A program made the translations under genes and the position numbers. The notes under the pieces were generated by a model. The model was given only the letters and a program-made list of their open reading frames with translations. It was not told where the DNA came from and did no database searches. DNA of 64,000 nucleotides, taken from positions 1,263 to 65,262 of the forward strand of contig DATLOL010000080.1 in assembly GCA_035536275.1 (NCBI GenBank). The letters are read 5' to 3'. Source of the DNA: Thermoanaerobaculia bacterium. Lineage in GTDB: Bacteria; Acidobacteriota; Thermoanaerobaculia; Gp7-AA8. Below, piece by piece: positions 1,089 through 51,326 of the stretch. How positions within the stretch are numbered: position 1 is the first letter of the stretch; each line of letters opens with the position of its first letter.

Positions 1089-1236
1089 GCGGTAGGACGG
1101 AGAAGAGTCAGTTGTAAGCGTCCGGCGGAATTCAAGGCGTCAACGAGCCGCGGAGCGGCGGCAGAATGTAGCCCACGGCGCAAGCCGTGGGTCAACCGGC
1201 AACCAAAACCTCACCAGCCCCAGAGGGGCGAAAGAA

Positions 1237-1684
1237 ATGCCTCACGCCTTCACGAACCTCCTCGCGCACAGTCATCTTCAGCACCAAGGAACGCTCCCCA
1301 TTAATCGACGCCGAGCTGAGACCTAAACTGCACGCCTACCTCGGCGGCATCGTCCGCGAACTCAACGGCACGACGATAATAATCAACGGCACGGACGACC
1401 ACGTTCACCTGCTCGTCTCCATGCCGGCGACAATCTCGGTCTCCGACGCCATGCGCGTGCTCAAGACGAACTCATCGAAGTGGGTACACGACACGCGCCG
1501 CAAGCCGTTCGGCTGGCAGGCGGGTTACGGCGCTTTCAGTGTGAGCAAATCAAACGTCGAGGCAGTCAGCCGCTACATCGCTGACCAGGAGGAGCACCAC
1601 AGGAAAGTTTCATTTAAAGAGGAGTTCGTCTCGTTTTTAAAGAAACACGGCGTGGAATACGACGAGCGGTTCATCTGGGGGTGA
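1237..1684 (+). pseudogene. IS200/IS605-family Y1 (HuH) transposase, RAYT-like, with apparent +1 frameshift near 1270
   Basis: ATG at 1237 encodes MPHAFTNLLAH (canonical IS200/RAYT N-terminus) in frame 1, then conserved VIFSTKERSPLID...DDHVHLLVS (HuH)...VLKTNSSKW...GYGAFSV (catalytic Tyr region)...QEEHH continues in frame 2 (track ORF 1187..1684); one extra nucleotide near 1270 separates them. Could also be a sequencing error. Confidence 0.55.
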
Positions 1685-1721: not shown

Positions 1722-1823
1722 GCGGGCCTGTCCCCACGGCTTACGCCGTGGGCTACATTCTGCCGCCGCTTTCTGCGGCTCGTTGTCGCGTGGGACTGAG
1801 CTACGCCCTCACGTCCATTGGTT

Positions 1824-4997: not shown

Positions 4998-5885
4998 TCA
5001 GGCCTCGTGTTTCGCCGTCAGCGCGAGCAGGTCCTCTGCGGAAAACTGGTACTTCCTGCCGCAGAACTGACACGCCACCTCGGTGCCGCCTTCGTCGATG
5101 ATGTCCTGGATCTCGTCCGCCGCGAGGAACGACACGCCGGCCAGCGCGCGGTCGCGCGTGCACTGGCAGGTGTAGCTCACCGGCACGGTGTGACCGGCGT
5201 CGATCTGCTTATAGCCGGCGCCGCTGAAGATGGTCGCGACCACGTCCTCGATCTCCATCTTCTCGAGCAGCGTCGACAGCGGCGGGGCCTCGGTGATGCA
5301 GCGCTCAATCTTCGCGATGGCCTCGGCGGGCGCATGAGGGAAGGCCTGCACGACGATGCCGCCCGCGGAGGCGACGCCGTCGCGGCGATTGAACACACCG
5401 AGGAGCACGGCCGAGGCGATCTGCTCGGAGTTGAGCAGGTAGCGGGTGAGATCGGTGGCGATGCCCGTACCGCCGAGGAGCAGTTGCGATGTGTACGGTT
5501 TGCCGGTGGGCGGCGTGCCGCGGATGATCGTGAGCTTGCCGTTGCCGATGCTCGCGTCGACGTCGAGCAGCGGATCGTCGGGGACCGGGTTCGCGACGTA
5601 GCCGCGCACGTGGCCGGCGTTCGTGCCGTCGGCGATGAGCGTGCCGAGCGGCCCGTTGCCTTCGAAACGAAGCGTGACGTACTGGTTGCGGACGTCCTTG
5701 TCGAGCAGGCGCGCGAGGAGCAGGGCGCCCGTCATGGCGCGGCCGAGCGCGTCGGCGGCGACGGGAGAGAGGTCGAGGATCTCGCGCGCGGTGTCGACGG
5801 CCGTGGTCGTCTGCGCGGCGATGACGCGGAAGTGGCCGTCCACGGCCATCCCCTGAATGATACGGTCCTGAGTCTGCTGCTGCAT
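4998..5885 (-). CDS. hslO: Hsp33 redox-regulated chaperone
   Basis: N-terminal Hsp33 fold alignment; C-terminal zinc centre CQCTRD...CQFCGRKY (CxC...CxxC). Start placed at MQQQTQDRIIQ (M17 of track ORF) by homology. Confidence 0.85.
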   Translation of the reverse strand: MQQQTQDRIIQGMAVDGHFRVIAAQTTTAVDTAREILDLSPVAADALGRAMTGALLLARLLDKDVRNQYVTLRFEGNGPLGTLIADGTNAGHVRGYVANPVPDDPLLDVDASIGNGKLTIIRGTPPTGKPYTSQLLLGGTGIATDLTRYLLNSEQIASAVLLGVFNRRDGVASAGGIVVQAFPHAPAEAIAKIERCITEAPPLSTLLEKMEIEDVVATIFSGAGYKQIDAGHTVPVSYTCQCTRDRALAGVSFLAADEIQDIIDEGGTEVACQFCGRKYQFSAEDLLALTAKHEA

Positions 5886-5931
5886 GGACGGGTGGAAACG
5901 CGGCGGAACGGCAGTTGCTTCCGAGTTCAGC

Positions 5932-6291
5932 ATGAAGAAATTGGTCGTCGCTCTCGCAATCTTCGCCGCCGCGTGTCAGGTCAACGATAAGACAGGAGAA
6001 GTTCAACCGACGGCGGAGACGCAGACGGCCACGGCCGCGGCCGCCGAACAGACCCGCGATGCCGCCCAGGAAGTGAAGGAAGGCGCGCAGCAGCTCGGTC
6101 AGGAGATCAAGGAAGGCGCAAAACAGGTCCAGGAGTCCGAGGCCGGACAGCGCGTGGCCGAGGGCGCGCGCGAGGCCGGTCAGGGGATCAAGCAGGGCGC
6201 CGGTGAGGCCGCCGAGGCCGCCGGGCAGAAACTGGCCGAGGAAGGCCGCGAGGCTCAGGCCGAAGCCAAGGCCACGAAGAAAAAGCAGTAG
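5932..6291 (+). CDS. putative lipoprotein with low-complexity QE/KE repeats
   Basis: [15 protein letters not shown] lipobox-like signal; repeated [19 protein letters not shown] units. Confidence 0.45.
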
Positions 6292-6353
6292 GATTCGTTT
6301 CGCGCGCAAGCCGCCGTGGACGCGGCTTGCGCGACACGCAAGGAGGATCTTCC

Positions 6354-6863
6354 ATGGTGAGTTTCGGAAGAGCTTCCGTTGCCGGCGAGACCCAGACGCT
6401 CAAGGTCGGAGACACCGCTCCCGATTTCCAGCTTCCGGGTCACCGCGACAACGAGAAGTTCCGTCTCAGTGACTACAGGGGAAAGAAGAACGTCGTTGTG
6501 GTCTTCTACCCGCTCGACTGGACCCCTGTTTGAACGGTTCAGATGCCGTCGTATGAGGCCGAGTCGGCCGACTTCGAACGGTATGATGCCCAGGTCGTGG
6601 GCATTTCGGTGGATTCAGTACCCAGTCACGTTGCATTCTCAAAATCGATCGGCGGGATCACGAAGTATCCGCTCCTCGCCGATTTCCATCCCAAAGGTGA
6701 AGTCTCGAAAAAGTACGGCGTCTGGAAAGAAGACAAAGGAATCTGCGAGCGCGCCGTCGTGATCGTCGACAAGAAGGGCATCGTCCGCTACGTCGACGTC
6801 CACGACATCGGAGAAGCACCCGACAACGAGCAGTTGCGGGATGTCTTGCGCGAGCTCGATTAG
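6354..6863 (+). CDS. peroxiredoxin (AhpC/Prx1-type) with in-frame UGA at 6531..6533 in the peroxidatic Cys position; candidate selenocysteine selenoprotein (PrxU-like)
   Basis: Track ORFs 6327..6533 and 6543..6863 share one frame, separated only by TGA plus 3 codons. Joined read FYPLDWTPV-[UGA]-TVQMPSYEA...[18 protein letters not shown]...YPLLADF...[15 protein letters not shown] aligns with FYPLDFTFVCPTE...GVSVDS..SH.AW of Prx1/AhpC, so UGA falls on Cp. GGAGGA 7 nt before ATG 6354. No resolving Cys at C-terminus. Confidence 0.65.
6534..6600 (+). promoter_or_regulatory. candidate bacterial SECIS region downstream of the UGA
   Basis: GC-rich stem-loop GGCC-GAGUC-GGCC at 6557..6569, apex about 30 nt after UGA, embedded in further self-complementary sequence (GUUCAGAUGCCG...CGACUUCGAAC); fold not computed. 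Confidence 0.3.
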
Positions 6864-6869
6864 CAGTAC

Positions 6870-6938
6870 GGGCGGGCCGTCCACGGGCCCGCCGTATAGG
6901 TCGTATAGGACCTATACGACTATACGACCCATACGAGG
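6870..6938. promoter_or_regulatory. intergenic hairpin (GGGCGGGCC-GTCCAC-GGGCCCGCC, 6870..6893) followed by palindromic GTATAGG/CCTATAC 9-bp repeat block (6894..6938)
   Basis: Contains perfect 21-bp palindrome GTCGTATAGGACCTATACGAC (6900..6920); same 9-bp unit family as the arrays at 41773, 49851 and 27585; lies in the 80-bp gap between the prx gene and the GrdB-like gene. Confidence 0.5.
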
Positions 6939-6943
6939 TTTTC

Positions 6944-7627
6944 ATGCTCAACATCGCACGCAAGTGCGTTCCCTTTACTCCCTACGACAAAGATCTCGCC
7001 TCCGCCACCGTCACCATCGTCTCGCTCACCGGGGTCTTCCTCGGCGACCAGGAGCCGTTTCCGGGTGAAGACCCGGGCGACATCACCTATCGCGTCATCC
7101 CCGGCGACGCCGACCTCGGCACGGCCCGCATCGTCCATGGGCACTACGATCACAGCGAGGCGGACGCGGATCCGAACATCGTCTTTCCACTGGAGACGCT
7201 GCGCGACCTGGCCGCGGAAGGACTGATCGGCGCCGTGAACGACAAGCACTACTCGTTCGGATTCACGACCCGTTTGCGCGAGCTGTACGAGACGGCATAC
7301 CCCGAGGTCGCGGACAAGATCGAGCGCTCGAAGACCAAGCTCGTGTTGCTGACGGCCGGCTGTCCGGAGACGTGTCACCGCGCGGTGGGCAACCTCGCGC
7401 GCGAGATCGAGGCCCGCGGCATCCCCACGCTGATCCTCAGCGCCTCGCCCGCGGCGACCGAGTCCGTGCGTCCGCCGCGCGCCATGACCTGGGACGGTGC
7501 GCAGATCGGCAGGATCATCGGCCGGGCCGGCGAGCGCGAGCAGCACAAGCTCGTGGTCCGCGCCGCGCTGCAGATGTTCACGCACGACACGCCGCCCGGG
7601 AAGGTCGTCGTGAAAAACCTCCACTGA
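6944..7627 (+). CDS. GrdB/PrdB-family (glycine/sarcosine/betaine/D-proline reductase selenoprotein B-like) small protein, Cys form
   Basis: 227 aa; overall resemblance to the short 'selenoprotein B family' proteins of non-clostridial bacteria; GCPETC motif where selenoprotein members carry U. Assignment from memory of the family, not searched. Confidence 0.4.
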   Translation: MLNIARKCVPFTPYDKDLASATVTIVSLTGVFLGDQEPFPGEDPGDITYRVIPGDADLGTARIVHGHYDHSEADADPNIVFPLETLRDLAAEGLIGAVNDKHYSFGFTTRLRELYETAYPEVADKIERSKTKLVLLTAGCPETCHRAVGNLAREIEARGIPTLILSASPAATESVRPPRAMTWDGAQIGRIIGRAGEREQHKLVVRAALQMFTHDTPPGKVVVKNLH

Positions 7628-17285: not shown

Positions 17286-18419
17286 ATGACCACGGCCGCC
17301 GACACGCCCATCGCCCACACCGATCCGACGAACGCGCAGATCCTCGCGGTCTCCGAGGATCGCATTCAGGGGTTCGTCCGCGATCCGTTCGGCACGATCG
17401 CGCGGCAGGCCGGTCTCGAGCCGGAGCCGGTGATGGAGCGCATCCGCGCGATGCTCCGCGGCGGCACGATCCGCCGCGTGCGGCAAACGCTCATGGCCAC
17501 CAACCTCGCCGAGGGCGCGCTGGTGGCGTGGCAGTTCCCGAACGAGAAGCTCGATGCGGCGTTCGACTTCATGTTTCAGGAGGACCCGTTCTCCGGACAC
17601 GTGGTCATCCGCTCCGCCGATCCGGCAACGCCCGGCTCGAGCTATCGCCTCTGGACGACGGTCAAAGTCCCGCAAGGCTATTCGATCGAGAAACACTGCG
17701 CGTTTCTGTCGACGCTCACCGGCGCCGATCACTTCTGCGTCATGCCCGCCAAGCGCATCTTCGCCCTCGGCGTCGGCCACGTCCGCCGCAAGGGGATGGA
17801 GCCCGGCTCGAAGTCCGATGAGTCGGCGCAGGTCAAGGACACCGCCAAGGTCGAGCTGACGGATCTGGAGTGGCAGGTCCTGACGGCGGTGAAACGCGAG
17901 CTCACCGAGGACGAGGTGACGCGCGATCTGTGGGAGCGCCGCGCGCGGGAGGCGGGCGTGCCGCTCGAGCAGTTCTACGAGGTCGCGGAGAACCTCAACG
18001 CCCGCGGCGTGGTGGGACGCTTCTCCACGTTCCTCGAGCACGTGAAGCCGCTGCAGACGGGGGAGCGCGTGACGCGCTTCAACGCGCTTTTCCACTGGGC
18101 CGTGCCGCCGGGGCGCGAGCTCGAGGCCGGACAGCAGGCCGGACGCTTCCACATCCTCACCCACTGCTACTGGCGCGAGGGCGGACCGGAGTTCCGCAAC
18201 GTGAACATCATGGCCGTCGCTCACGGCACTGAGAAGGAAGCCGTGCTCGCGCACAAGCGCGCCATCGACGAGCACCTGGAGAGCGTCGGCATCCCCGTGT
18301 CGTACACGAACGTGTTCTGGGGCGGCCGCAGCGAGATCAAGCCGAGCGAGATCTCGCCGTTCGCGTATCGCGCGTGGTGCGCGTCGCGCGGCGTCGACGC
18401 CGAGACGATGCGCGACTAG
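17286..18419 (+). CDS. fused siroheme decarboxylase-like protein (AhbA/AhbB or NirDL-type; two Lrp/AsnC-like repeats)
   Basis: Two tandem about 180-aa repeats, each an HTH-like segment (LTDLEWQVLTAVKRELTEDEV) followed by ...LTHCYWREGGPEFRNVNIMAVAHGTEKEAVLAH..., resembling AhbA ...[22 protein letters not shown]...QTVLAQ. Start moved to ATG 17286 because the upstream part of the track ORF overlaps the opposite-strand methyltransferase gene. Confidence 0.5.
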   Translation: MTTAADTPIAHTDPTNAQILAVSEDRIQGFVRDPFGTIARQAGLEPEPVMERIRAMLRGGTIRRVRQTLMATNLAEGALVAWQFPNEKLDAAFDFMFQEDPFSGHVVIRSADPATPGSSYRLWTTVKVPQGYSIEKHCAFLSTLTGADHFCVMPAKRIFALGVGHVRRKGMEPGSKSDESAQVKDTAKVELTDLEWQVLTAVKRELTEDEVTRDLWERRAREAGVPLEQFYEVAENLNARGVVGRFSTFLEHVKPLQTGERVTRFNALFHWAVPPGRELEAGQQAGRFHILTHCYWREGGPEFRNVNIMAVAHGTEKEAVLAHKRAIDEHLESVGIPVSYTNVFWGGRSEIKPSEISPFAYRAWCASRGVDAETMRD

Positions 18420-20032
18420 CTCGCCGCCATGAACTCGACGCCCGCGTTCTCTTTCTGCGCGTAGTCGAGCTCCCAGTCCGACGTGAACAGCACGACCGCG
18501 TGTCCGTTGCGATCGATGGCCACGCGCGAGCGCGAGGGAAGGGTCATGCGCGCGACTTCGTCGACGTCGCGATCGACCCAGCGTGCCAGCTTGTACGGCA
18601 GGTTCGTCATCGTCGTCTCGACGCCGTACTCGGTCTCGAGCCGGGACGCGAGCACGTCGAACTGCAGCTCGCCCACGACCGCGAGAATGGGCTCGCTCTT
18701 CAGGCCATCGTGCAGCACGAAGACCTGCATCGCGCCCTCTTCCTCGAGCTGCGCCAGGCCTTTCTGGAACTGCTTCTGCCGCGTGACCTGCTTCGCGCGC
18801 AATGTCGCGTAGTGCTCGGGCGCGAAACGGGGGATGCGGTCGAACTCGACCGGCTCGCCGGATGACACGGCGTCGCCGATCTGGAAGAGGCCGGGATTGA
18901 CGAAGCCGATGACGTCGCCGGGATAGGCCTTGTCGATCGTGACGCGTTCCTGAGCGAAGAGGCGATGCGGGCGGGTCATGCGCACCTCCCGGCCCAGGCG
19001 CGCGTGATGAACGACCATGTCCTTCTCGAAGACCCCCGAGGTGATGCGCATGAACGCCAGGCGGTCGCGATGGCGCTTGTCCATGTTCGCCTGAATCTTG
19101 AACACGAACCCGGTGAAGACGTCGCTGTGCGGCGTGAGCTCGAAGTCCTCTCCTTTCGCCTTGGCGTGACGCGGCGAGGGAGGCGGCGCAAACTCGATGA
19201 CGGCGCGCAGGAACGACTCGACGCCGAAGTTGTTCACGGCGCTGCCGTAGAACACGGGGATGACCCGGCCGTACTCGAACTGCTTCTGATCGAACAATCC
19301 GCCGGCGCCCTCGAGAAGCTCCGCCGCATCGCGAAGGTCCTGCCACGCCGTTGGTCCGATCGCGTCGGCGAGATTCGGATCATCGAGGCCGCTCACGGTC
19401 ATGGGCGCGACGGATGCGCCGTGCCGGGTACGCTCGAATTGCAGCACCTGCTGGTTGCGGAGGTCGAAGACGCCCTGGAACGTCGGCCCGTCGCCGATCG
19501 GCCAGTTCATCGGCACGGCCGAGACCTTCAGCTCGCGCTCGATCTCGCTCAGGAGCTCGAACGGATCCTTGGCCGGCTGATCGAGCTTGTTGACGAAGCA
19601 GAGGATGGGGATGTGCCGCATCCGGCAGACCTCGAACAGCTTGCGCGTCTGCGGCTCGATGCCCTTGGCGCCGTCGAGGACCATGACCGCGCTGTCCGTG
19701 GCGGCCAGCGTGCGGTAGGTGTCCTCGGAGAAGTCCTGGTGGCCGGGGGTGTCGAGGAGGTTCAGCACCGACCCCTCGTACTCGAACTGGAGCACGGTGG
19801 AGGTGATGGAGATGCCGCGGCTCTGCTCGATGGCCATCCAGTCCGAGGTGGTGTGACGCTGCTGCTTGCGCGCGCGCACCGAGCCGGCCTCTTCGATCGC
19901 GCCGCCGTAGAGGAGGAGCTTCTCGGTGAGGGTGGTCTTTCCCGCGTCAGGGTGGGAAATGATGGCGAAGGTCCGCCGGCGGGCGACCTCACGACCGAGG
20001 TCGTCGGCGGTGACTTCAGGAACGGCTGTCAT
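18416..20032 (-). CDS. prfC: peptide chain release factor 3 (GTPase)
   Basis: Collinear with E. coli RF3: RRTFAIISHPDAGKTT, DTPGHQDFSEDTYR, NKLD, GFVFKIQANMD, PNFAPE. Start at MTAVPEV (M61 of track ORF). Confidence 0.9.
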   Translation of the reverse strand: MTAVPEVTADDLGREVARRRTFAIISHPDAGKTTLTEKLLLYGGAIEEAGSVRARKQQRHTTSDWMAIEQSRGISITSTVLQFEYEGSVLNLLDTPGHQDFSEDTYRTLAATDSAVMVLDGAKGIEPQTRKLFEVCRMRHIPILCFVNKLDQPAKDPFELLSEIERELKVSAVPMNWPIGDGPTFQGVFDLRNQQVLQFERTRHGASVAPMTVSGLDDPNLADAIGPTAWQDLRDAAELLEGAGGLFDQKQFEYGRVIPVFYGSAVNNFGVESFLRAVIEFAPPPSPRHAKAKGEDFELTPHSDVFTGFVFKIQANMDKRHRDRLAFMRITSGVFEKDMVVHHARLGREVRMTRPHRLFAQERVTIDKAYPGDVIGFVNPGLFQIGDAVSSGEPVEFDRIPRFAPEHYATLRAKQVTRQKQFQKGLAQLEEEGAMQVFVLHDGLKSEPILAVVGELQFDVLASRLETEYGVETTMTNLPYKLARWVDRDVDEVARMTLPSRSRVAIDRNGHAVVLFTSDWELDYAQKENAGVEFMAAS

Positions 20033-20108
20033 TGCCGCGGCGAGAACAACGGTGAGAGAGCGTGTCATCCCTCTTGAGCATCTGACTCTCGCAAGGTCCG
20101 CTTTTCGC

Positions 20109-20411
20109 ATGTACGGCCATCCGGAGAAAAGGCAATGCGCCACTACCAAAGTGTCTGCTCTGTTGCTGGTTCTGGCCAGTCTTCCGATGCTCGCCGACGA
20201 CAAGCCCGGCATCCCGATTGTGGAGCCCGAGGAGGACGAAGGCGGGTGTGAGGAGTGCGTCTACAGCGAATACGACGGCAGCGTTTCATGTGAGCCGGAT
20301 CCGATCGGCGCCGGCTGGATGGACTGCGAAGGCGGGTGGTTCTCTCAGTGCGATGCGACCGGCGATTGCGTGCGCACTCCCGATTGCGGCCAGCGTTGCG
20401 CGATTGCATGA
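20109..20411 (+). CDS. small secreted acidic cysteine-rich protein (9 Cys in a 68-aa mature region), function unknown
   Basis: Predicted signal peptide ...KVSALLLVLASLPMLA|DDKPG; mature part CEECVYSEYDGSVSCEPDPIGAGWMDCEGGWFSQCDATGDCVRTPDCGQRC; stop overlaps the next gene's ATG (ATGA), suggesting translational coupling. Start uncertain (ATG 20109 or GTG 20151). Confidence 0.4.
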   Translation: MYGHPEKRQCATTKVSALLLVLASLPMLADDKPGIPIVEPEEDEGGCEECVYSEYDGSVSCEPDPIGAGWMDCEGGWFSQCDATGDCVRTPDCGQRCAIA

Positions 20412-23764: not shown

Positions 23765-23819
23765 GGGACCGCCGCGAATCTTAGCGCCGATTCGACGCCC
23801 TGAGTAGAATCCGCCGCGC

Positions 23820-25085
23820 ATGCGTCTCAACGTCACCAGCGAGATCGGTCGCCTCAAGAGCGTGCTGGTCCACCTTCCCGGGCGGGAGATCGACCTGATG
23901 ATTCCGCCCATGATGGCCCAGCTCCTCTTCGACGACATCCTCTACGGCCAGGTCGCGCGCGAGGAGCATCGCCGTTTCCAGCAGCTCATCCGCTTCATCG
24001 CGGACGACGTGTACGACCTCCAGGACCTTCTCGAGGAGGTCCTCGAAGACGCCGACGCGAAGAAACACATCGTCCGCGATCTCGCGAAGCGCAACGGACT
24101 GCGGCCGCGCATCACCGCGCAGCTTCTCGAGCATCCGGCGGGCGCGCTCGCGGAAGTGCTCATCGCGGGGATCTCCCGCGACAAAGGCTCGGGCGATCTC
24201 CCCGAGTTCGACCTCTTTCCGATCCCGAACCTCTTCTTCATGCGCGACCCGCAGATCGTCCTCGGCGATCGCGTCGTCATCGCATCGATGGCCACGCAGG
24301 CTCGCCGCCGCGAGTCGCTGCTGTCGAAGTACGTATTCGAGAATCACCCGCACTTCCGCGACAACGAGTTCTGGGTGGACTTCATGGCCACCGAGCCGGA
24401 GCGCCCGATGTCGCGCAGCACGCCTACGCTCGAGGGCGGCGACGTGCTGGTGCCCCGTCGCGATCTGCTCCTCGTCGGCGTCACCGAGCGCACGAACAAG
24501 GCCGGCGTGCAGTCGTTGATCTCGTCGCTGAAGAAGGCCAACGCCGGCGTAAACACGGTGATCATCGTCGAGATCCCGCGCCAGCGCTCATTCATGCACC
24601 TCGACACGATCTTCACCTTCATCAACCGGCACGAGTGCCTGGTCTATCCGCCGGTCATCCTGCCGAAGGGCGGACAGGCGGCGAAGGTCACGAGCGTAGA
24701 TCTGACGAAGAAGCGCGGCGCGGCGTACAGCGCGGAGAAGTCGCTGCTCGCGGCGCTGAAGAAGCAGGGCTTCGATCTGGATCCGATCTACTGCGGCGGA
24801 CAGAGCGCCGTCGACCAGCAGCGCGAGCAGTGGACCGATGGGGCGAACGCGTTCGCGCTCGCGCCGGGCGTCATCCTCCTGTACGAGCGCAACGTGCGCA
24901 CCGCGGAGGAGCTGGCCCGCCACGGCTATCACATTGTGTACGAGGACGATCTGCTCCTCGGCCGCACGGAGCTCGAGACCTGGACCGACAAAAAGTACGC
25001 GATCCAGATCGCGGGTAACGAGCTGTCGCGCGCGCGGGGCGGCCCTCGCTGCATGACCATGCCGCTCGAGCGCGAGGAGCTTTGA
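23820..25085 (+). CDS. arcA: arginine deiminase
   Basis: 421 aa, amidinotransferase fold; catalytic-Cys context SRARGGPRCMTMPLERE at C-terminus; conserved FMRDPQIVLGD and HLDT motifs. Confidence 0.85.
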   Translation: MRLNVTSEIGRLKSVLVHLPGREIDLMIPPMMAQLLFDDILYGQVAREEHRRFQQLIRFIADDVYDLQDLLEEVLEDADAKKHIVRDLAKRNGLRPRITAQLLEHPAGALAEVLIAGISRDKGSGDLPEFDLFPIPNLFFMRDPQIVLGDRVVIASMATQARRRESLLSKYVFENHPHFRDNEFWVDFMATEPERPMSRSTPTLEGGDVLVPRRDLLLVGVTERTNKAGVQSLISSLKKANAGVNTVIIVEIPRQRSFMHLDTIFTFINRHECLVYPPVILPKGGQAAKVTSVDLTKKRGAAYSAEKSLLAALKKQGFDLDPIYCGGQSAVDQQREQWTDGANAFALAPGVILLYERNVRTAEELARHGYHIVYEDDLLLGRTELETWTDKKYAIQIAGNELSRARGGPRCMTMPLEREEL

Positions 25086-26033
25086 TTGGCTGACCGCAAG
25101 CTGGCCGTCGTGGCGTTCGGCGGCAACGCGCTCCTTCGCGCCGAAGACCACGGAACCCAGGAAGAGCAGATCGGCCGCGCCAAGCAGGCCGCGCGCTGGC
25201 TCGCGGAGATCGTGCGCTACGGCTACAAGCTCCTGGTCGTGCACGGCAACGGACCCCAGGTCGGGAACATCCTCGTGCAGGCGGAGGAAGCGTCGACCAA
25301 GATCCCGCCACAGTCGCTGGACGTGTGCGTTGCGCAGACCGAGGGCTCGATCGGGTTCATGCTGCAGCAGGCCATTCGCAATCGTCTCGAGTCGATCGGC
25401 CTCGGCGGCGAAGTCGTGACCGTGCTGACGGAAGTCGAGGTCGACGTTGCGGATCCCGCGTTCAAGCGTCCGACGAAGCCCATCGGACCGTTCTTCACGC
25501 GCTATCGTGCCGAGACCCTCGAGCGCGACCTCGGCTGGACGATGCGCGAGGACGCGGGCCGCGGATGGCGTCACGTCGTGCCTTCGCCGAAGCCGCTGCG
25601 CATCCTGAACATCAAGACCATCGCCCGGATGCTCGACACAGCCTCGGTGGTGATCGCAGCGGGCGGCGGCGGCATCCCGGTGGTGAAGGGACGCGACGGT
25701 CAGTGGCGCGGCATCGAGGCCGTCATCGACAAGGACTACGCGTCGGCGCTCCTCGGCGCGGGACTCGACGCCGACGTCTACATCGTGCTGACCGGCGTAC
25801 CGAAAGTCGCGATCGATTTCGGCAAACCGTCGCAGCGTTTCCTCGACCGCATGACGGTGGCCGAGGCGGAGAAGCACATGGCGGACGGACAGTTTCCGCC
25901 CGGCTCGATGGGGCCGAAGATCGACAGCGCGATCCAGTTCGTGCGCCAGTCGGGGCACGAGGTGCTGATCACGGACGTGGAAGTGCTGCGCGAAGCGCTC
26001 GAGGGGAAGAACGGGACCGTGATCACGCGGTGA
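25086..26033 (+). CDS. arcC: carbamate kinase
   Basis: VVAFGGNALL, VVHGNGPQVGN, AAGGGGIPVV amino-acid kinase family motifs; TTG start 1 nt after the arcA stop. Confidence 0.85.
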   Translation: MADRKLAVVAFGGNALLRAEDHGTQEEQIGRAKQAARWLAEIVRYGYKLLVVHGNGPQVGNILVQAEEASTKIPPQSLDVCVAQTEGSIGFMLQQAIRNRLESIGLGGEVVTVLTEVEVDVADPAFKRPTKPIGPFFTRYRAETLERDLGWTMREDAGRGWRHVVPSPKPLRILNIKTIARMLDTASVVIAAGGGGIPVVKGRDGQWRGIEAVIDKDYASALLGAGLDADVYIVLTGVPKVAIDFGKPSQRFLDRMTVAEAEKHMADGQFPPGSMGPKIDSAIQFVRQSGHEVLITDVEVLREALEGKNGTVITR

Positions 26034-39424: not shown

Positions 39425-40936
39425 ATGCCCCCATTGGCGTTTCGCGTCGCACGCGGCGAGCGGGAGCTCGAACAACTCCACGCGCTGCATTACCGTGCCT
39501 TCGTCGAGGAGATCCCCCAGCATCCCCGCAACGACGCGCGCCGCCACGTCGACCGCTTTCATGGCGAGAACGTTTATCTCGTCGCCGTCGACGGCGAGAC
39601 GATCGTGGGAAGCGTGGCCCTGCGCACGCGCCGCCCCTTCTCGCTCGACGCCAAGCTCCCCGATCTCGACCGCTATCTGCCGCGCGATCGCCGGTTCTGC
39701 GAGGTCCGCCTGCTGAACATCCTGCCCGAGCGTCGCGGCAGCAACGTGCTCCCCGGACTCCTCACCGCGGTAACGGACTACGCCGATGCGGAGCAGATCG
39801 ACGCGGCGGTGATCTCCGCGACCACGCGGCAGCTCCGGCTGTACGGGCGTCTGGGGTTCGTGCCATTCGGCCCGCTGGTCGGAACGGCGGACGCGTCGTT
39901 CCAGCCGATGCTGCTGACGATCGAGGAGCTGCGCAGACGCGCGCAGGAGATCGTGGCGCTGCCCCCGGCCCTCCGCGGCGAGGCGGTGAACCTCACCTCC
40001 GGACCGGTGGCCATTCATCCGGACGTCCAGGCCGCGTTCCACACCGCGCCGGTCTCGCACCGTTCCGCGGTGTTCGAGAGCGAGCTGCGCACCGTCAAGT
40101 CGCGACTCTGCGCGCTGACCGCGGCCCGCAACGTGGCAGTGCTCTTCGGCACAGGCACGCTCGCGAACGACGTGGTCGCCGGACAGCTCCGCGCCCTCGG
40201 CGGACGCGGCGTCGTCTTCAGCAACGGCGAGTTCGGCGAGCGCCTCGCCGATCACGCGCGCCGCGCAGGGCTCGACTTCGAGCACCGCCGTTTTCCGTGG
40301 GGCTCGGCAATCGATCCGGGCCCGCTCGATGGCTGTTCGTGGGTGTGGCTGACCGCGTGCGAGACGTCCACCGGCGTGCTGAACTCCGTGTCCGCCCGCG
40401 GAGTGAAGATCGCGCTCGACTGTGTGAGCGCGATCGGTGCCGTCCCGCTCGATCTCTCGCACGTCTGGCTCGCCTCGGGCGCCAGCGGCAAAGCGCTGGC
40501 GTCGTATCCGGGCCTGTCGTTCGTCTTCTACGGCGACGTGCTGCCCACGGGCGGACCGCGCTATCTCGACCTCGAGCTCTACGCGGCCGACGGCGTGCCG
40601 TTCACGCATTCGTCGAATCTCGTGCGCGCGCTGCACGCTGCTCTCACGCGCGTCGACTGGCCCGCGCACTACGAGGAGCTCGCCCGCACCGGCGCCTGGC
40701 TCCGCGCACGCCTCCCGAACGTACTCCCCGGCAACGCACCGCACGTCATCACTCTCACCGTCCGCGACTCGGCGCGCGCTGCCGCGGAGCTCGAACGCGC
40801 CGGCTTCCTCGTGTCCTGGGCCAGCGGCTACCTCCGCGAGCGCAACTGGATCCAGGTCTGCCTCATGGGCGAAGTGCCGCGCGAGGCGCTTCCCGCGCTG
40901 GTGCGGATTTCGCGAGCTCCGTCGCCCGTTGCGTGA
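39425..40936 (+). CDS. fusion protein: N-terminal GNAT acetyltransferase domain plus C-terminal class V (PLP-dependent) aminotransferase
   Basis: Residues 1-170 GNAT-like (..VYLVAVDGETIVGSVAL...RRGSNVLPGLL...); residues 180-519 AGXT/PSAT-like aminotransferase V fold (GPV.IHP.V..A......HRS..F......V...L......N..V.....GT.A.D.V). Start at M17 of the track ORF to avoid overlapping the divergent lipoprotein gene; GTG 39377 is an alternative. Confidence 0.6.
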   Translation: MPPLAFRVARGERELEQLHALHYRAFVEEIPQHPRNDARRHVDRFHGENVYLVAVDGETIVGSVALRTRRPFSLDAKLPDLDRYLPRDRRFCEVRLLNILPERRGSNVLPGLLTAVTDYADAEQIDAAVISATTRQLRLYGRLGFVPFGPLVGTADASFQPMLLTIEELRRRAQEIVALPPALRGEAVNLTSGPVAIHPDVQAAFHTAPVSHRSAVFESELRTVKSRLCALTAARNVAVLFGTGTLANDVVAGQLRALGGRGVVFSNGEFGERLADHARRAGLDFEHRRFPWGSAIDPGPLDGCSWVWLTACETSTGVLNSVSARGVKIALDCVSAIGAVPLDLSHVWLASGASGKALASYPGLSFVFYGDVLPTGGPRYLDLELYAADGVPFTHSSNLVRALHAALTRVDWPAHYEELARTGAWLRARLPNVLPGNAPHVITLTVRDSARAAAELERAGFLVSWASGYLRERNWIQVCLMGEVPREALPALVRISRAPSPVA

Positions 40937-43619: not shown

Positions 43620-43801
43620 GCCGCCGAAGCGCAGCGGAGGACGGTCGAAGGATCCCCTGCTTCGTTACCATGGAGGGGATCCCGCGCTGAAGCGCGGGAT
43701 GACACGTACGCCCCGCGTGTCATCCCGTGTCGCGAAGACGGCACGGGATCCCCCTCCTGGTAACGAAGCGGGGGATCCCTCGACTTCGCTCGGGATGACA
43801 C
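43608..43801. repeat. two tandem family-B nested palindromic repeats (43608..43705 and 43717..43801)
   Basis: Each is GTGTCATCC(C/T)G....GGATCCCC / ....GGGATCCC TCGACTTCGCTCGGGATGACAC with an internal second hairpin; separated by 11 nt; fills the DedA to tal intergenic region. Confidence 0.85.
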
Positions 43802-43844
43802 GGGTCGAATATGCTTACCCTCCGCAAAATCACAGGAGGCGCGC

Positions 43845-46601
43845 ATGACCAATCCCCTCGGGCAACTTCCCAAAGCCGGACAGAGTGTCTGGTTCGATCA
43901 GATGGAGCGCCGGCTCGTGACCAGCGGGAAGCTGCAGCAGATGATCGACGAGGACGATCTCCGCGGCCTCACCTCGAACCCCACCATCTTCGAGAAGGCC
44001 ATCGGCGGGAGCGAGGACTACGACGGGCAACTGCGCACGCTCGCCTCGCAGGGAAAATCGCGCGACGAGATCTACGACGAGCTGGTCGTCGAGGACATCG
44101 GCAACGCCGCGGACGTCTTCCTCCCCGTCTACCAGAAGACGAACGGCGAGGATGGCTACGTCAGTCTCGAAGTGTCGCCGCTGCTCGCCAGCGACACCGC
44201 GAACACGGTCTCCGAGGCCAAGAGGCTGTTCGCGAAAGTGGGGCGGCCGAACGTCATGATCAAGATCCCGGCGACGCCGGAAGGCATCCCCGCGATCCGG
44301 AGCACCATCGCCAAAGGCATCAACGTCAACGTCACGCTCATCTTCTCGAACGAGGTCTACGCGCAGGTCATCGAGGCGTATCTGCGCGGTCTCGAAGAGC
44401 GCGCCGCGAACGGCCTCCCCATCGGGGACATCTCCTCGGTGGCGAGCTTCTTCGTCAGCCGCATCGACGCGCAGGCCGACAAGCAACTGGAGGCGAAAGG
44501 CGAGACGGAGCTCATGGGCAAGGTCGCCATCGCCAACGCGAAGATGGCCTACCAGCTCTTCAAGCAGGTCTTCACCAGCGAACGCTTCATGAAGCTGCGG
44601 GACAAGGGCGCGCGCGTGCAGCGTCCGCTGTGGGCCTCGACGGGGACGAAGAATCCGAAGTATCCCGACACGCTCTACGTCGACTCGCTGATCGGACCGG
44701 ACACGGTCAACACCATCCCGCCCGCGACCTACGACGCGTTTCGCGATCACGGCGGGGTCGAGCTCACCCTCGAGAAGGACGTCGATGAAGCGCGTCGCGT
44801 CCTCGAGCAGTTCGAGACCAAGGGCTTCTCGCTCCCGGCCATCACGGAGAAGCTCACGGCCGAGGGGGTGAAGTCGTTCAACGACTCGTTCGCGCAACTG
44901 ATGGACACGATCGAGGCGCGGCGCGACTCCGTCGTGCGCGGCCTGCCCGACCGCGTGACCGTGCACGGTGCGAACGTCGACGACGCCATCGCCCGCGCCG
45001 AAAAAGAAAAAGTCGTGAGCCGCATCTGGGCCAAGGAAAGCGCGCTCTGGAAGTCCGACGCCGAGCACGCGAAGATCATCGACAACGCGCTGGGCTGGCT
45101 GTTCATCCCGCGTATGATCTCCGGCCAGCCGGCGAAGGAGCTGATGGAGCGGGCGGATGCGCTTCGCCGCGACTTCGACAAGGTCGTCGTCCTGGGCATG
45201 GGCGGCTCGAGCCTCTGCTCCGAGGTCGTACGCCGGCTGTTCGGAAAACGGGAGGGCTATCGGGAGCTGCTCGTCCTCGACTCCACCGTTCCCGAAGCAG
45301 TGAGCCTGCTGGAGGCGAAGCTCGACCTCGCGCGGACGCTGTTCATCGTCGCGTCGAAGTCCGGCGGCACCACCGAGCCGATGATGTTCCATCGCTACTT
45401 CTACGATCGCGTGAAATCGATCAAGGGAGAGAAGGCGGGCGAGAACTTCGTCGCCGTCACCGATCCGGACACGCAGCTCGGGGCGGACGCGCAGCGCGAC
45501 CGGTTTCGCGAGATCTTCATCAATCCGCCCGACATCGGCGGCCGCTACTCGGCGCTCTCGTTCTTCGGCATTCTCCCGATGGCGCTGGCCGGCGTCGACG
45601 TCGCGGAGCTGCTCGACCGCGCCGTGCACGCGATGCACGTCTCCGCGATTCCCCAGGTGCGGAAGAACCCTGCCGCGCTCCTCGGCGCCGTCATCGGCGG
45701 TTGCGCGCTGCAGGGCCGCGACAAGCTCACGCTCATCACGCCCCGGCCGCTCGACACGCTCGGTCTCTGGATCGAGCAACTGATCGCGGAGAGCACGGGC
45801 AAGGAAGGCAAAGGTATCGCGCCGATCGCCGGCGAGCCCGCGCTCGCGGCGAACGAGTACGGGAACGACCGCCTCTTCGTGGCCGTGCGGATGCGTGGCA
45901 GCGACGAGACCGCCCGCCTGCGCGAGCTCACCGCGGCCGGACATCCCGTCGTCGACATCGTGCTCGAAGACCCGCTCGACCTCGGCGAGATCTTCTTCCT
46001 TTGGGAGTTTGCCACCGCCGTCGCGGGGTATCTCATCGGCGTGAACCCGTTCGACCAGCCGAACGTCCAGGAGTCGAAGGACAACACCAAGTCGCTGCTC
46101 GCGGAGTTCACGGAGAAGGGGACCATGACCGGTGCGGGCGGGCCTCCGGGCAAGCGCGTGCCGGTGAGCGACGCGGACGCGATCGCGAGTCTGCTCGCGA
46201 GCGTGAAGCCGGGCGACTACGTCGCGATGACGCAGTACTTCGCTGAGACCATCTCCCGCGAGGAGAAGCTCGCCACGATCCGCGAGACCATCGCCCGCGA
46301 GCTGCGCGTCGCGACGACCAGCGGCTACGGTCCGCGCTTCCTCCACTCCACCGGCCAGCTTCACAAGGGCGGCGGCGGCAACGGCGTGTTCCTGCAGCTC
46401 TCCGGCGGCAAGGGCGATGATGTGGCCATTCCGAACGAGAAGTTCGGCTTCGGCGCGCTGGTCCGCGCGCAGGCGATCGGCGATTTCCAGTCCTTGGTGA
46501 AACGCGATCGCCGCGCCCTCAGCATCGACCTCGGCAACGACGTCGACGCCGGGCTCGAACAGCTCGCGCAGGCCGTGAAGAACGCGGTGGTGAAGGCATG
46601 A
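43845..46601 (+). CDS. bifunctional transaldolase / glucose-6-phosphate isomerase fusion
   Basis: N-terminal about 370 aa transaldolase (TSNPTI, ASFFVSRID with Schiff-base Lys region IKIPAT); C-terminal about 540 aa PGI (GMGGSSL, SKSGGTTE, GGRYS); 918 aa. Confidence 0.9.
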   Translation: MTNPLGQLPKAGQSVWFDQMERRLVTSGKLQQMIDEDDLRGLTSNPTIFEKAIGGSEDYDGQLRTLASQGKSRDEIYDELVVEDIGNAADVFLPVYQKTNGEDGYVSLEVSPLLASDTANTVSEAKRLFAKVGRPNVMIKIPATPEGIPAIRSTIAKGINVNVTLIFSNEVYAQVIEAYLRGLEERAANGLPIGDISSVASFFVSRIDAQADKQLEAKGETELMGKVAIANAKMAYQLFKQVFTSERFMKLRDKGARVQRPLWASTGTKNPKYPDTLYVDSLIGPDTVNTIPPATYDAFRDHGGVELTLEKDVDEARRVLEQFETKGFSLPAITEKLTAEGVKSFNDSFAQLMDTIEARRDSVVRGLPDRVTVHGANVDDAIARAEKEKVVSRIWAKESALWKSDAEHAKIIDNALGWLFIPRMISGQPAKELMERADALRRDFDKVVVLGMGGSSLCSEVVRRLFGKREGYRELLVLDSTVPEAVSLLEAKLDLARTLFIVASKSGGTTEPMMFHRYFYDRVKSIKGEKAGENFVAVTDPDTQLGADAQRDRFREIFINPPDIGGRYSALSFFGILPMALAGVDVAELLDRAVHAMHVSAIPQVRKNPAALLGAVIGGCALQGRDKLTLITPRPLDTLGLWIEQLIAESTGKEGKGIAPIAGEPALAANEYGNDRLFVAVRMRGSDETARLRELTAAGHPVVDIVLEDPLDLGEIFFLWEFATAVAGYLIGVNPFDQPNVQESKDNTKSLLAEFTEKGTMTGAGGPPGKRVPVSDADAIASLLASVKPGDYVAMTQYFAETISREEKLATIRETIARELRVATTSGYGPRFLHSTGQLHKGGGGNGVFLQLSGGKGDDVAIPNEKFGFGALVRAQAIGDFQSLVKRDRRALSIDLGNDVDAGLEQLAQAVKNAVVKA

Positions 46602-49299: not shown

Positions 49300-49833
49300 T
49301 CAGACCCACGATCGCTGTCCGACGATCCAGAAGATCAGGGCGACCACGCCGGCGACCATCGTCACCGCCGCGGCGAGCACCAGCAGCACGATCAACACCC
49401 CCACGAAGGCGATCGCTCCGTACGAGCGTGGCGGGCGGCGCCGGTCGCGATGCTTCTCCAGCAGCCGCAGGTTCGTAACGTTCTCCTCGTACAGGAAGTC
49501 GAACACGTCGCCGGCCACGGGCACCGACCCGACCACCAGGTCGATGCCGATGTTGAGGAGCATCCGGGCGATGATCCGCCCCGGCACGCGATGCCGCAGC
49601 GCGCCGATGACGATCCACGTCGACATCACGCCGCCGATCACGTCGCCGATGCCCGGAATCAGTCCCAGGAGCGCGTCGAGGCCGACCTTGAAGGGCGTCC
49701 CGGGGATGGAGAACGCCTCGTCCATCAAGTAGGCGAAGCGCCGCAACGCCAGCAGATCGCGCGGCAGCTTCTCGTCCGGCTCGATGACGTCGGGGATATG
49801 GACCTTCTCAGGCACGCTGAGCAGTTTATGCAA
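49300..49833 (-). CDS. DUF4112-family membrane protein
   Basis: GLDALLGLIPGIGDVIGGV signature, two TM helices; TTG start. Confidence 0.55.
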   Translation of the reverse strand: MHKLLSVPEKVHIPDVIEPDEKLPRDLLALRRFAYLMDEAFSIPGTPFKVGLDALLGLIPGIGDVIGGVMSTWIVIGALRHRVPGRIIARMLLNIGIDLVVGSVPVAGDVFDFLYEENVTNLRLLEKHRDRRRPPRSYGAIAFVGVLIVLLVLAAAVTMVAGVVALIFWIVGQRSWV

Positions 49834-49850
49834 GATCGAGGACCATCGGT

Positions 49851-49886
49851 CCCATACGTCCTATAGGTCCCATAGGTCCTATAGGA
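49851..49886. repeat. tandem array of four 9-bp units CC(C/T)ATA(C/G)G(T/A) in the divergent promoter region upstream of yihY paralog 2
   Basis: CCCATACGT CCTATAGGT CCCATAGGT CCTATAGGA preceded by the degenerate CCATCGGT; 19 nt before the ATG at 49905. Confidence 0.85.
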
Positions 49887-49904
49887 CTCGTTTATGCTTC
49901 CCCC

Positions 49905-51326
49905 ATGACCGAAGACCCGCGGGAGCGTCCTGCCGGCTGGCGTGACCGCTGGCTGACCAAGCTGATCTCGGCCAAGAACATCTTCTGGTCGTGGCTGACC
50001 GACCCGGCCGTGCTGGTCTACCGGCGTCACGGTTTCGGGCAGAAGCGGTTCCGCGCGACGATCGTCGAGTTCTTCCTCTTCGTGCGCGAGGTCGTGCGGG
50101 AGTTCTGGAACATCGAAGGGACGTCACGCGCGGCGTCGCTGGCGTACACGACCCTGCTCTCGCTCATCCCGCTGCTGGTCGCGTTCACGACCTACGTGCA
50201 GCGCTACTTCTCCACGATCTTCCCCGGCTTCCGCGCGCAGATCGACGCGATCATGAACGCGGTCATCCCCTACCGCTCGCCGCTGGTCACGTATCACCTG
50301 ACGCGATTCACCGAGAACGCGGCCACGGCCTCGATCTTCGGCGCGATCGCGTTCATGTTCATCGCCTTCCGCCTGTTCCTGGCCGTCGAGGGCGCCGTGA
50401 ATCAGATCTGGAAGGTGCGCAGCGTGCGCGGCTACCGCCAGAAGATCACGGCCTTCACGATGCTGTTCTTCTGGGGCCCTCTGCTCATGACGCTGTCGTT
50501 CACGACGACGAACATGCTGGAGCAGAACCGCTACCTGCGCATCCTCTTTCAGGGCGATCTGATCTTCACGATCGTGCCGATCTTCGTCCTGTTCATTGGC
50601 TTCACGATGCTGTTCTGGCTCGTGCCGTCGACGCGCGTGCGCCTGCCCGCGGCGATGGTGGGCGCGATCGTGACGACGCTGCTGTTCGCGGGGGTCCGCG
50701 CCCTCTTCGGCATCTACTCGGACTGGTTGATGAGCGGACGCCTGAACATCATCTACGGCACGGTCGGCTTGGCTGTGGTCTTCCTGATCGCCATCGAGAC
50801 GATGTGGGTGGTCATCCTCCTCGGCGTCGAGGTCAGTTACGTCTGGCAGAACCTCTACGGCGTCCTGCGCGCGACCGAGCAGCAGGTGAACGATGAGCCG
50901 CAGTTCGATCTCTACTTCGCGCTGCGGGCCCTGATCGAGATCTCGCGACGCTTCGACCGGCGCGAGGAGCCTCCGTCCGCGTATCGCCTGGCCGAGCAGT
51001 TCAACACCACGGACTCGCAGATGATGCGGGTCATGCGGAAGCTCGAGGACGGCAAGCTCGTCGCCGAAACGGGCGGCGACTGGATCGGCTACGTGCCCGC
51101 GTGCGACCCCGACCGCATCAGCATCGAGGAAGTGGTCGTGCAGATGGAAGGCGTCCTGCGCCTCGTCCCGGACATCGGCCCCGAGGATCGCGAGCGGGCG
51201 ATGGTGGGAACGCTCTTCCAGACGCTGAACCAGTGCACGTCGCAGGCGCTGGACCGGATGTCGATCGGCCGCGTCGTCCGCGAGCTCTACGCGCCCCGGC
51301 AAGTGCGCGAAGAAGACGTGGTCTGA
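49905..51326 (+). CDS. YihY/BrkB family membrane protein, paralog 2, with about 130-aa cytoplasmic C-terminal extension
   Basis: LAYTTLLSLIPLLVAF...ASIFGAIAFMFIAF..LFLAVEGAVNQIW signature, six TM helices; C-terminal soluble domain (..FALRALIEISRRFDRREEP..MRVMRKLEDGKLV..) looks winged-helix-like. Confidence 0.75.
   Translation: MTEDPRERPAGWRDRWLTKLISAKNIFWSWLTDPAVLVYRRHGFGQKRFRATIVEFFLFVREVVREFWNIEGTSRAASLAYTTLLSLIPLLVAFTTYVQRYFSTIFPGFRAQIDAIMNAVIPYRSPLVTYHLTRFTENAATASIFGAIAFMFIAFRLFLAVEGAVNQIWKVRSVRGYRQKITAFTMLFFWGPLLMTLSFTTTNMLEQNRYLRILFQGDLIFTIVPIFVLFIGFTMLFWLVPSTRVRLPAAMVGAIVTTLLFAGVRALFGIYSDWLMSGRLNIIYGTVGLAVVFLIAIETMWVVILLGVEVSYVWQNLYGVLRATEQQVNDEPQFDLYFALRALIEISRRFDRREEPPSAYRLAEQFNTTDSQMMRVMRKLEDGKLVAETGGDWIGYVPACDPDRISIEEVVVQMEGVLRLVPDIGPEDRERAMVGTLFQTLNQCTSQALDRMSIGRVVRELYAPRQVREEDVV

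Follow-up and report, generated by a model that had tools for sequence, protein, structure and literature searches.

A probable selenocysteine peroxiredoxin gene

The gene considered here, a peroxiredoxin (Prx) gene at 6354..6863 on the forward strand, lies in a 64,000-nucleotide (nt) stretch of DNA (the window) from a Thermoanaerobaculia bacterium (contig DATLOL010000080.1, positions 1,263 to 65,262), and it carries an in-frame TGA at the codon of the catalytic residue. The TGA is conserved, orthologues have Cys at the same codon, the coding sequence is under purifying selection before and after the TGA, and a covarying RNA structure is specific to the TGA-bearing forms. On these grounds it is very probably a genuine gene for an AhpE-like peroxiredoxin in which UGA is read as selenocysteine (Sec, U). 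An earlier reading made from the sequence only (the sequence-only reading) had joined two open reading frames (ORFs), 6327..6533 and 6543..6863. They are indeed halves of one frame of 170 codons, with the TGA and three codons between them; TGA 6531..6533 is its sole internal stop, and the terminal stop is TAG 6861..6863. The features of the gene are as follows.

6340..6347, + strand: Shine-Dalgarno-like sequence AAGGAGGA, read from the sequence, 6 nt 5' of ATG 6354
6354..6863, + strand: predicted Sec-peroxiredoxin coding sequence, 169 residues with U60, AhpE-like, without a C-terminal extension
6531..6533, + strand: in-frame UGA, putative Sec codon for the peroxidatic residue (TGA conserved, Cys in orthologues)

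The ribosome-binding site that had been noted ahead of ATG 6354 is thus present, and the position of this start is kept in 48 of 48 relatives (described below). With Cys in place of the stop, the joined protein matched the Pfam family PF00578 (AhpC-TSA) with an E-value of 5e-39 and 133.4 bits (cut-off 26), spanning profile positions 1-124 of 124. When the protein is aligned with solved peroxiredoxins, the UGA falls on their peroxidatic Cys, where it had been placed before. In translation the catalytic motif reads P53-L-D-W-T57-P-V-U60, which corresponds to PxxxTxxU, the motif given for Sec-peroxiredoxins in a 2026 review (PMC13188914). The catalytic Arg133 is invariant in the family alignment and aligns within the conserved AhpE segment 'NRGTFVVD'.

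The sequence-only reading had also stated that no resolving Cys is present. The protein ends at residue 169 and has no C-terminal resolving Cys, but one further Cys exists, namely C131 ('GICERA', codon 6744..6746), two residues ahead of the catalytic Arg. C131 is kept in 43 of 48 close relatives, but the remaining Sec and Cys forms of the family have Ser or Thr instead, and there is therefore no family-wide resolving residue. C131 could be a lineage-specific resolving residue making a selenenylsulfide with U60. The comparative evidence lends strong support to the core of the sequence-only reading, a catalytic UGA decoded as Sec in a 1-Sec mechanism without a C-terminal resolving Cys.

Conservation of the UGA and selection on both halves of the gene

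In a scan of one genome per species, we identified relatives of the gene in 47 metagenome-assembled genomes (MAGs) of Thermoanaerobaculia/Acidobacteriota (72-96% protein identity) and in one Chloroflexia MAG (55%). A stop was found at exactly Prx codon 60 in all 48 genomes, always as TGA and never as TAA or TAG, while the genuine Prx terminator in the same genomes varies between TAG, TGA and TAA. About 60 soil contigs covering codon 60 have TGA in every case. Cys is found at codon 60 in 21 Ktedonobacterales/Chloroflexia orthologues (46-53% identity) and in several soil sequences (P0001-P0006, L082). The median pairwise dN/dS, from 1128 pairs, was 0.149 upstream of the UGA (59 codons) and 0.128 downstream of it (109 codons), which shows that selection preserves the protein encoded by both halves in a single frame.

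These observations bear on three other explanations of the stop. A nonsense mutation, or a sequencing or assembly error, on a Cys codon would take a single base change from TGC or TGT to TGA, and the window comes from a MAG. However, 48 independent genomes and about 60 metagenome contigs, likewise independent, share the identical TGA, which bears out the earlier argument that a chance hit on the catalytic codon is unlikely. Decay downstream of a shared TGA in orthologues, which had been named as a sign of a pseudogene, was not seen (dN/dS 0.13 downstream). Together with a selected RNA structure confined to the TGA-bearing genes (see below), the conserved TGA and the dN/dS values rule out a pseudogene or error, to which we give practically no weight.

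The second explanation is a split or truncated gene, in which translation stops at the UGA and the 106-residue C-terminal part either is a separate product started at ATG 6543 or is not made. ATG 6543 is invariant, and gene callers uniformly deposit the product beginning at Met64, such 106-residue fragments making up more than 100 distinct clusters (90% identity) in the protein database. Since neither fragment carries the catalytic residue, a split gene is very unlikely. Moreover, purifying selection acts equally on the 59 codons upstream, which have their own conserved ATG and ribosome-binding site, no Shine-Dalgarno sequence precedes 6543, and Met64 also occurs in most uninterrupted Cys forms and is thus a structural residue. 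The number of fragment clusters shows instead that public gene callers truncate the Prx gene systematically.

The third explanation, a genome-wide reassignment of UGA to sense (genetic code 4 or 25), draws on a few gene calls that give Trp at the codon (P0007, P0010, P0035). Against it, TGA is the commonest terminator of long ORFs with high GC content at third codon positions in the window (16 of 28), Prx itself ends in TGA in many relatives, and conserved genes of the window (MetH, RF3, Ffh and others) are without internal TGA. The frequency of TGA as a terminator rules out this reassignment, and we see next to no chance of it. As a separate observation, the calls made on Logan assemblies (P0007, P0010, P0035; L083, L084) read 'TPVWTVQ' and have put full-length but wrong proteins into the protein database, apparently having used code 4.

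A two-hairpin RNA element following the UGA

The diversity of synonymous codons collapses at codons +4 to +25 after the UGA and is normal again at +26. Within this region the six-fold degenerate Arg codon is CGG in 47 of 48 sequences, and GCC, CAG, GTG and GGC are invariant. The rare codons TAT and ATT are also fixed 3' of the UGA, although the genome has a GC content of 66%. A consensus fold of 49 distinct sequences obtained with RNAalifold gave two hairpins.

6543..6584, + strand: hairpin 1 (H1), 42 nt; basal stem of 7 bp (6543-6549/6578-6584), upper stem 6557-6560/6566-6569, loop GAGUC 6561-6565; minimum free energy (MFE) -19.1 kcal/mol
6586..6604, + strand: hairpin 2 (H2), 19 nt; 7-bp stem AUGCCCA/UGGGCAU, loop GGUCG 6593-6597; MFE -10.2 kcal/mol

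After the UGA the layout is thus 9 nt of single strand, H1 of 42 nt, 1 nt and H2 of 19 nt, all within the next 75 nt. The stem-loop GGCC-GAGUC-GGCC at 6557..6569, which the sequence-only reading had pointed out, is present but forms merely the top of this larger element. In the alignment, 97.1% of the cells at consensus pairs hold standard pairs, against 33-38% after a shift of the pairing by 1-3 columns. The covariation score was 0.105 versus 0.037 in shuffled alignments, and none of 500 shuffles reached 0.105. Six pairs show compensatory double changes, e.g., pair 39-45 (CG in 41 sequences, GC in 6, AU in 1 and GU in 1) and pair 70-78 (CG in 45, GC in 4), and some of the changes that preserve pairing alter amino acids (Q to E together with V to F). 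The same two-hairpin architecture was found in a distant clade, where 92.5% of the positions concerned are paired. The base of H1 occupies the same columns in a distant soil clade, while its top differs there (a CCGA tetraloop). The upper part of H1 is accordingly clade-specific, and H2 is common to all clades of Sec forms, with the G and the U of its loop invariant.

The Cys forms, which encode nearly the same peptide with the same GC content (0.59), served as a control for the pairing of H2:

Sec forms, Thermoanaerobaculia-like clade (n=71): mean 6.75 of 7 pairs; all 7 pairs in 53
Sec forms, distant clades (n=39): mean 6.85 of 7 pairs; all 7 pairs in 36
Cys forms (n=22): mean 4.77 of 7 pairs; all 7 pairs in 0

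H2 is thus complete in 89 of 110 Sec forms versus none of 22 Cys forms, and the mean MFE of the region after codon 60 is -30.6 kcal/mol in Sec forms and -25.8 kcal/mol in Cys forms. The pair types in 102 unique Sec forms give an example: where Thr replaces Ala, the Gly codon paired with it changes from GGC to GGU, giving an A-U pair, while 19 of the 22 Cys forms, with the same Thr, retain GGC and have an A·C mismatch. As H2 pairs fully in most Sec forms and in no Cys form, the structure tracks the UGA and not the protein sequence.

In one soil contig (L137:727-825) the Prx gene retains the TGA, but some 37 nt further on its sequence no longer resembles the others at all, which represents either a deletion of both hairpins or an assembly chimera.

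Relation to known peroxiredoxins

The best match in the PDB was AhpE of Mycobacterium tuberculosis (E 2e-28, aligned over residues 14-166). AhpE chains account for the top seven PDB matches (98.9-102.5 bits), with 2-Cys peroxiredoxins close behind (94 bits). The earlier description had aligned the protein end to end with Prx1/AhpC; the whole AhpC-TSA domain is matched, but the nearest relative appears to be of the AhpE type. The label 'PrxU-like' did not stand: the NCBIfam profile for PrxU (NF040737) gave 81.6 bits against an equivalog cut-off of 270 bits, and with AhpE as the best PDB match, membership in PrxU was rejected. Judged by these profile and structure-database scores, the window protein resembles the 1-Cys peroxiredoxin AhpE and is no PrxU orthologue.

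PrxU of Eubacterium (Peptoclostridium) acidaminophilum, described by Sohling et al. in 2001, reportedly has Sec at the peroxidatic position, as would the protein studied here, and is to our knowledge the only Sec-peroxiredoxin characterized biochemically. The two differ in that the PrxU profile has 233 positions and represents another Prx type, while the window protein has 169 residues and is closest to AhpE. With AhpE (Rv2238c; PDB 1XVW, 1XXU, 4X0X) it shares a compact size, the lack of a C-terminal arm bearing a resolving Cys and the segments 'PLL(A/S)DF.P.G' and 'R..(V/F)V(I/V)D', but AhpE has Cys where the window protein would have Sec. AhpE requires an external reductant (mycoredoxin-1/mycothiol). 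We know of no PrdB-like neighbour (see below) for AhpE, and the Actinomycetota relative L070 is without one.

Prx (TxxU) is an established selenoprotein family, known since 2001 and listed in the prokaryotic selenoproteome catalogues of Kryukov, Zhang and Gladyshev (PMC1088965, PMC2398784, PMC13188914). Its catalogued members share with the window protein the AhpC-TSA domain, Sec in place of the peroxidatic Cys in PxxxTxxU and widespread Cys homologues, and were predicted through the same logic of Sec/Cys pairs and a selenocysteine insertion sequence (SECIS). The catalogues differ in pooling several Prx subfamilies, whose sequences may include orthologues of the window Prx, and they make no mention of Thermoanaerobaculia, of the AhpE-like type, of a two-hairpin SECIS or of a PrdB-like neighbour. 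In the literature searched we found nothing on Thermoanaerobaculia together with selenocysteine, nor on the gene context of PrxU. The Sec-peroxiredoxin itself is thus a publicly unannotated addition to a known selenoprotein family.

A PrdB-like protein is encoded next to the peroxiredoxin

Immediately downstream of the Prx gene we identified a gene for a putative redox protein (the partner).

6944..7627, + strand: PrdB/GrdB-like redox protein, 227 residues; Pfam GRDB 35.5 bits; C8, HxHYDH and C140-P-E-T-C144 invariant
7361..7375, + strand: codons of the partner redox motif C140-x3-C144, here in the Cys form, from the family alignment

The partner matched TIGR04483 (PrdB) with an E-value of 4e-33 and 114.7 bits, below the 300-bit cut-off, and TIGR01917 with 39.4 bits, below the 602-bit cut-off. 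With scores under these equivalog cut-offs and no annotated neighbour being PrdA, GrdA or another reductase subunit, a true PrdB/GrdB was rejected, and by these scores the partner is a homologue of PrdB/GrdB but not a member. It is identical to NCBI HVE71086.1, annotated as 'selenoprotein B family protein', and bears the JGI label 'D-proline reductase PrdB'. PrdB and GrdB are UxxC selenoproteins, with which the partner shares full-length homology (to PrdB) and Sec or Cys at the equivalent U-x-x-C position. The differences are that the partner adjoins a peroxiredoxin and Hsp33, and that its motif has CxxxC spacing in this lineage. An AlphaFold model of the partner (predicted template modelling score 0.81) has an α/β fold; it had no significant match among PDB structures (best E 0.026), and no PDB sequence homologue was found.

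Synteny of the Prx and PrdB-like genes extends to every one of the 47 Thermoanaerobaculia loci with downstream sequence and to 21 Chloroflexota loci. For a test in the opposite direction, the PrdB-like protein alone was used to choose 80 soil-metagenome loci. Sixty of these had at least 600 nt upstream, and this Prx was found there in 55, mostly 3-300 nt away. The remaining five (L094, L106, L115, L118, L143) have a PrdB-like gene with room upstream yet no Prx, with Hsp33 still adjoining in L094 and L106; these loci may show what else the partner works with.

In 60 other loci (among L049-L069, L083 and L114-L164) the equivalent of partner C140 is TGA, followed 20 nt on by a hairpin with a GGUC loop. 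Consequently, all four combinations of Prx residue 60 and the first Cys of the partner motif are found:

Prx U, partner C: Thermoanaerobaculia; 24 soil loci
Prx C, partner U: 14 of 21 Ktedonobacterales-type loci
Prx U, partner U: 35 soil loci; L083
Prx C, partner C: L082; 7 Ktedonobacterales-type loci

We found no description of a conserved Prx/PrdB-like pair with exchange of Sec and Cys in the literature searched, nor anything on PrdB-like or GrdB-like proteins, and no text linked Prx and 'PrdB'. Both proteins are listed among the most abundant selenoproteins, with 43 Prx and 42 'PrdB' genes counted for the Sargasso Sea and, respectively, 253 and 235 for the Global Ocean Sampling (GOS) data (PMC1088965, PMC2398784).

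Which hairpin acts as the SECIS

The bacterial SECIS (bSECIS) model asks for a 3-9 nt loop on a 4-16 bp stem, with a G in the first two loop positions (PMC13188914). It further sets the distance from UGA to loop at 16-37 nt and the MFE at -7.5 kcal/mol or lower (PMC13188914). H1 falls within all four bounds of this model, with the loop GAGUC, an upper stem of 4-5 bp, a spacing of 27 nt and an MFE of -19.1 kcal/mol (-8.4 for the upper part). The hairpin that the sequence-only reading had put forward as SECIS-like is thus real and agrees with the bSECIS model, but it is clade-specific, while the downstream H2 is universal and resembles the SECIS of Escherichia coli fdhF. The apex of H2, CCA-GGUC-G-UGG, is similar to the SelB-binding minihelix of fdhF, GCA-GGUC-UGC. 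The two elements differ in position, the fdhF loop lying at +22..+25 and the loop of H2 at +63..+67, behind the intervening 42-nt hairpin. If H1 is treated as a closed insertion, the GGU of H2 comes to an effective +21..+23, versus +22..+24 in fdhF.

The Sec forms of the partner gene have a SECIS of their own, a bulged hairpin with a GGUC tetraloop at +21..+27, which is 96.4% paired and has one pair that toggles between CG (42 sequences) and UA (14 sequences). On contigs with UGA in both genes, SelB therefore evidently recognizes loops of the GGUC type. Most likely, H2 is the SelB-binding element and H1 a structured spacer, an assignment made from sequence comparison and held with moderate confidence. 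The alternative is that H1, which fits the bSECIS model by itself, binds SelB with H2 assisting. A hairpin of the fdhF type 59 nt from the UGA and behind a 42-nt hairpin was not found described in the literature searched. Gene finders that enforce a spacing of 16-37 nt would catch H1 and miss H2, and the two-hairpin element lends itself to probing the maximum distance of the SelB hairpin from the UGA.

Sec decoding and the weight of the evidence

Several results count against a Sec-peroxiredoxin with a distal SelB-binding hairpin and a dedicated partner. No selA, selB, selD or tRNA-Sec gene was found in the window (64 kb) or, in the 47 relatives, up to 10 kb from the gene, nor was there a second selenoprotein gene in the window. 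The ability of the host to decode Sec is inferred from the literature at phylum level, in which Acidobacteria and Chloroflexi are listed among the Sec-using phyla (PMC1794560). The fold of the post-UGA region as a single sequence was not significantly more stable than shuffled sequences (z = -1.04), and no SECIS-like Rfam family matched at gathering or permissive thresholds, the Rfam matches being two Acido-Lenti-1 RNAs elsewhere in the window and chance matches. The aligned relatives also encode a conserved peptide, which inflates the apparent conservation of the RNA and for which the Cys-form control is only a partial remedy. H2 lies within every bound of the bSECIS model except the spacing (59 nt versus 16-37 nt). 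Finally, the coupling of Prx and partner is drawn from gene context.

For the decoding genes, ARAGORN detected no tRNA-Sec in the window, in the 48 genome loci or in the 162 loci in all, and tblastn with SelA, SelB and SelD of E. coli gave no true match on the window and the collected loci. The weak SelB- and SelD-like matches were rejected as RF3 (window 18416..20212), IF-2 (L065) and ThiL (L056).

The lack of Sec machinery in the window and the collected loci would also be expected if a near-cognate or suppressor tRNA for Cys, Trp or Arg read through the UGA independently of a SECIS, with the hairpins as a stimulus, giving a Cys or Trp protein and no selenoprotein. Downstream RNA structures can stimulate read-through in general, and the automatic calls of Trp noted above (P0007, P0010, P0035) agree with it. 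We nevertheless consider such read-through improbable. The codon is that of the catalytic Cys/Sec, where Trp or Arg would inactivate the enzyme, and the family has either TGA or a Cys codon there and nothing else. In addition, TGA serves as an ordinary stop in the rest of the window. The same contigs also have TGA in place of the partner's redox Cys, with an fdhF-like GGUC-loop hairpin 20 nt downstream, and H2 has the same apical motif.

Proposed mechanism and implications

For a Sec-peroxiredoxin, the following mechanism can be envisaged. UGA 6531..6533 would be recoded by SelB and Sec-tRNA(Sec), guided by the structured RNA in the following 75 nt, with SelB binding the apical loop of H2 and the closed H1 bringing H2 to an fdhF-like effective spacing. 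In the cytoplasmic Prx, the selenolate would reduce a hydroperoxide and become a selenenic acid. Because the Prx is without a family-wide resolving Cys, the oxidized form may be recycled by the PrdB/GrdB-like protein encoded immediately downstream, through its C/U-x2-3-C motif, and that protein would in turn be reduced by some donor. The gene context suggests this role for the partner, as does the need of AhpE-type enzymes for an external reductant, which is known from AhpE of M. tuberculosis.

More tentatively, and with more doubt than conviction, we propose that the AhpE-like Prx and the PrdB-like protein could work together as a dedicated peroxidase system of two components, with Sec possible at one active site or at both, the Prx using a split SECIS whose 42-nt insertion hairpin brings a distal fdhF-like hairpin (59 nt) to the canonical effective spacing. 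If so, the stand-alone 'proline reductase PrdB' selenoproteins that are abundant in soil and ocean metagenomes would be peroxiredoxin reductants and not Stickland enzymes, and the split geometry would lie outside the current bSECIS model.

The Prx gene adds the Thermoanaerobaculia, in every one of the 47 species genomes examined, to the probable users of Sec-peroxiredoxins, and the 106-residue 'AhpC' fragments in public deposits are a concrete annotation fix. By itself, however, the gene is of moderate interest; the Sec-exchanging module and the composite SECIS with its putative distal fdhF-like hairpin matter more. The pairing of Prx and PrdB-like genes is near-obligate and occurs with all four Sec/Cys combinations across Acidobacteriota, Chloroflexota and soil metagenomes. 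It offers a testable function for stand-alone 'PrdB' selenoproteins, which catalogues have labelled as proline reductase since 2005 though their hosts lack the other reductase subunits.

Neighbouring genes and the remainder of the window

The surroundings of the gene pair contain the following features.

4998..5933, - strand: Hsp33 redox-regulated chaperone (Pfam HSP33, 233 bits), divergent and syntenic with the module
5884..6291, + strand: small Lys/Glu/Ala-rich protein with a lipoprotein-like N-terminus, between Hsp33 and Prx
6871..6936, + strand: intergenic hairpins between Prx and partner; perfect 8-bp GC stem 6871-6878/6886-6893 and nested TATAGG/TATACG palindromes 6893-6936

Hsp33 gave tblastn matches in 46 loci and is found in the same order in L082. 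The small ORF 5884..6291 had no family match in profile searches; homologue matches were found in 23 loci, and a similar small ORF is present in L082. Other annotated neighbours are an extracytoplasmic function (ECF) sigma factor, a PspC-domain protein and, in L082, an aldo-keto reductase. The palindromes in the 80-nt spacer between Prx and partner have 16-nt arms that are 94% complementary, and no terminator with a T-tract was called in the spacer. These hairpins could be an attenuator or a mobile repeat.

Two further pairs of ORFs joined by a TGA were examined as selenoprotein candidates and rejected. The pair at 25083 consists of arginine deiminase and a carbamate-kinase-like gene (23808..26033, + strand), ordinary adjacent genes in one frame, and the pair at 40934 of adjacent genes for an FeeM-like protein and a ferredoxin. 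The rest of the window is ordinary chromosome, with MetH, RF3, the arginine deiminase pathway, Ffh, TrmD and pentose-phosphate enzymes, and holds no selenium-related genes.

The two copies of the Acido-Lenti-1 small RNA (Rfam RF01687), at 1146..1191 (- strand) and 1733..1780 (+ strand), scored 52 and 48 bits (gathering threshold 37) and flank, on opposite strands, a 165-residue ORF at 1187..1684; they point to an Acidobacteriota host. At 43764..46601 (+ strand), an ORF of 945 codons combines a transaldolase domain (42-382) with a phosphoglucose-isomerase domain (471-681); 6-phosphogluconate dehydrogenase follows, and its stop-to-stop ORF overlaps that ORF. A further single ORF, 49821..51326 (+ strand), is a fusion of a BrkB/YihY membrane domain (99-344) and an Rrf2 transcriptional-regulator domain (366-487).

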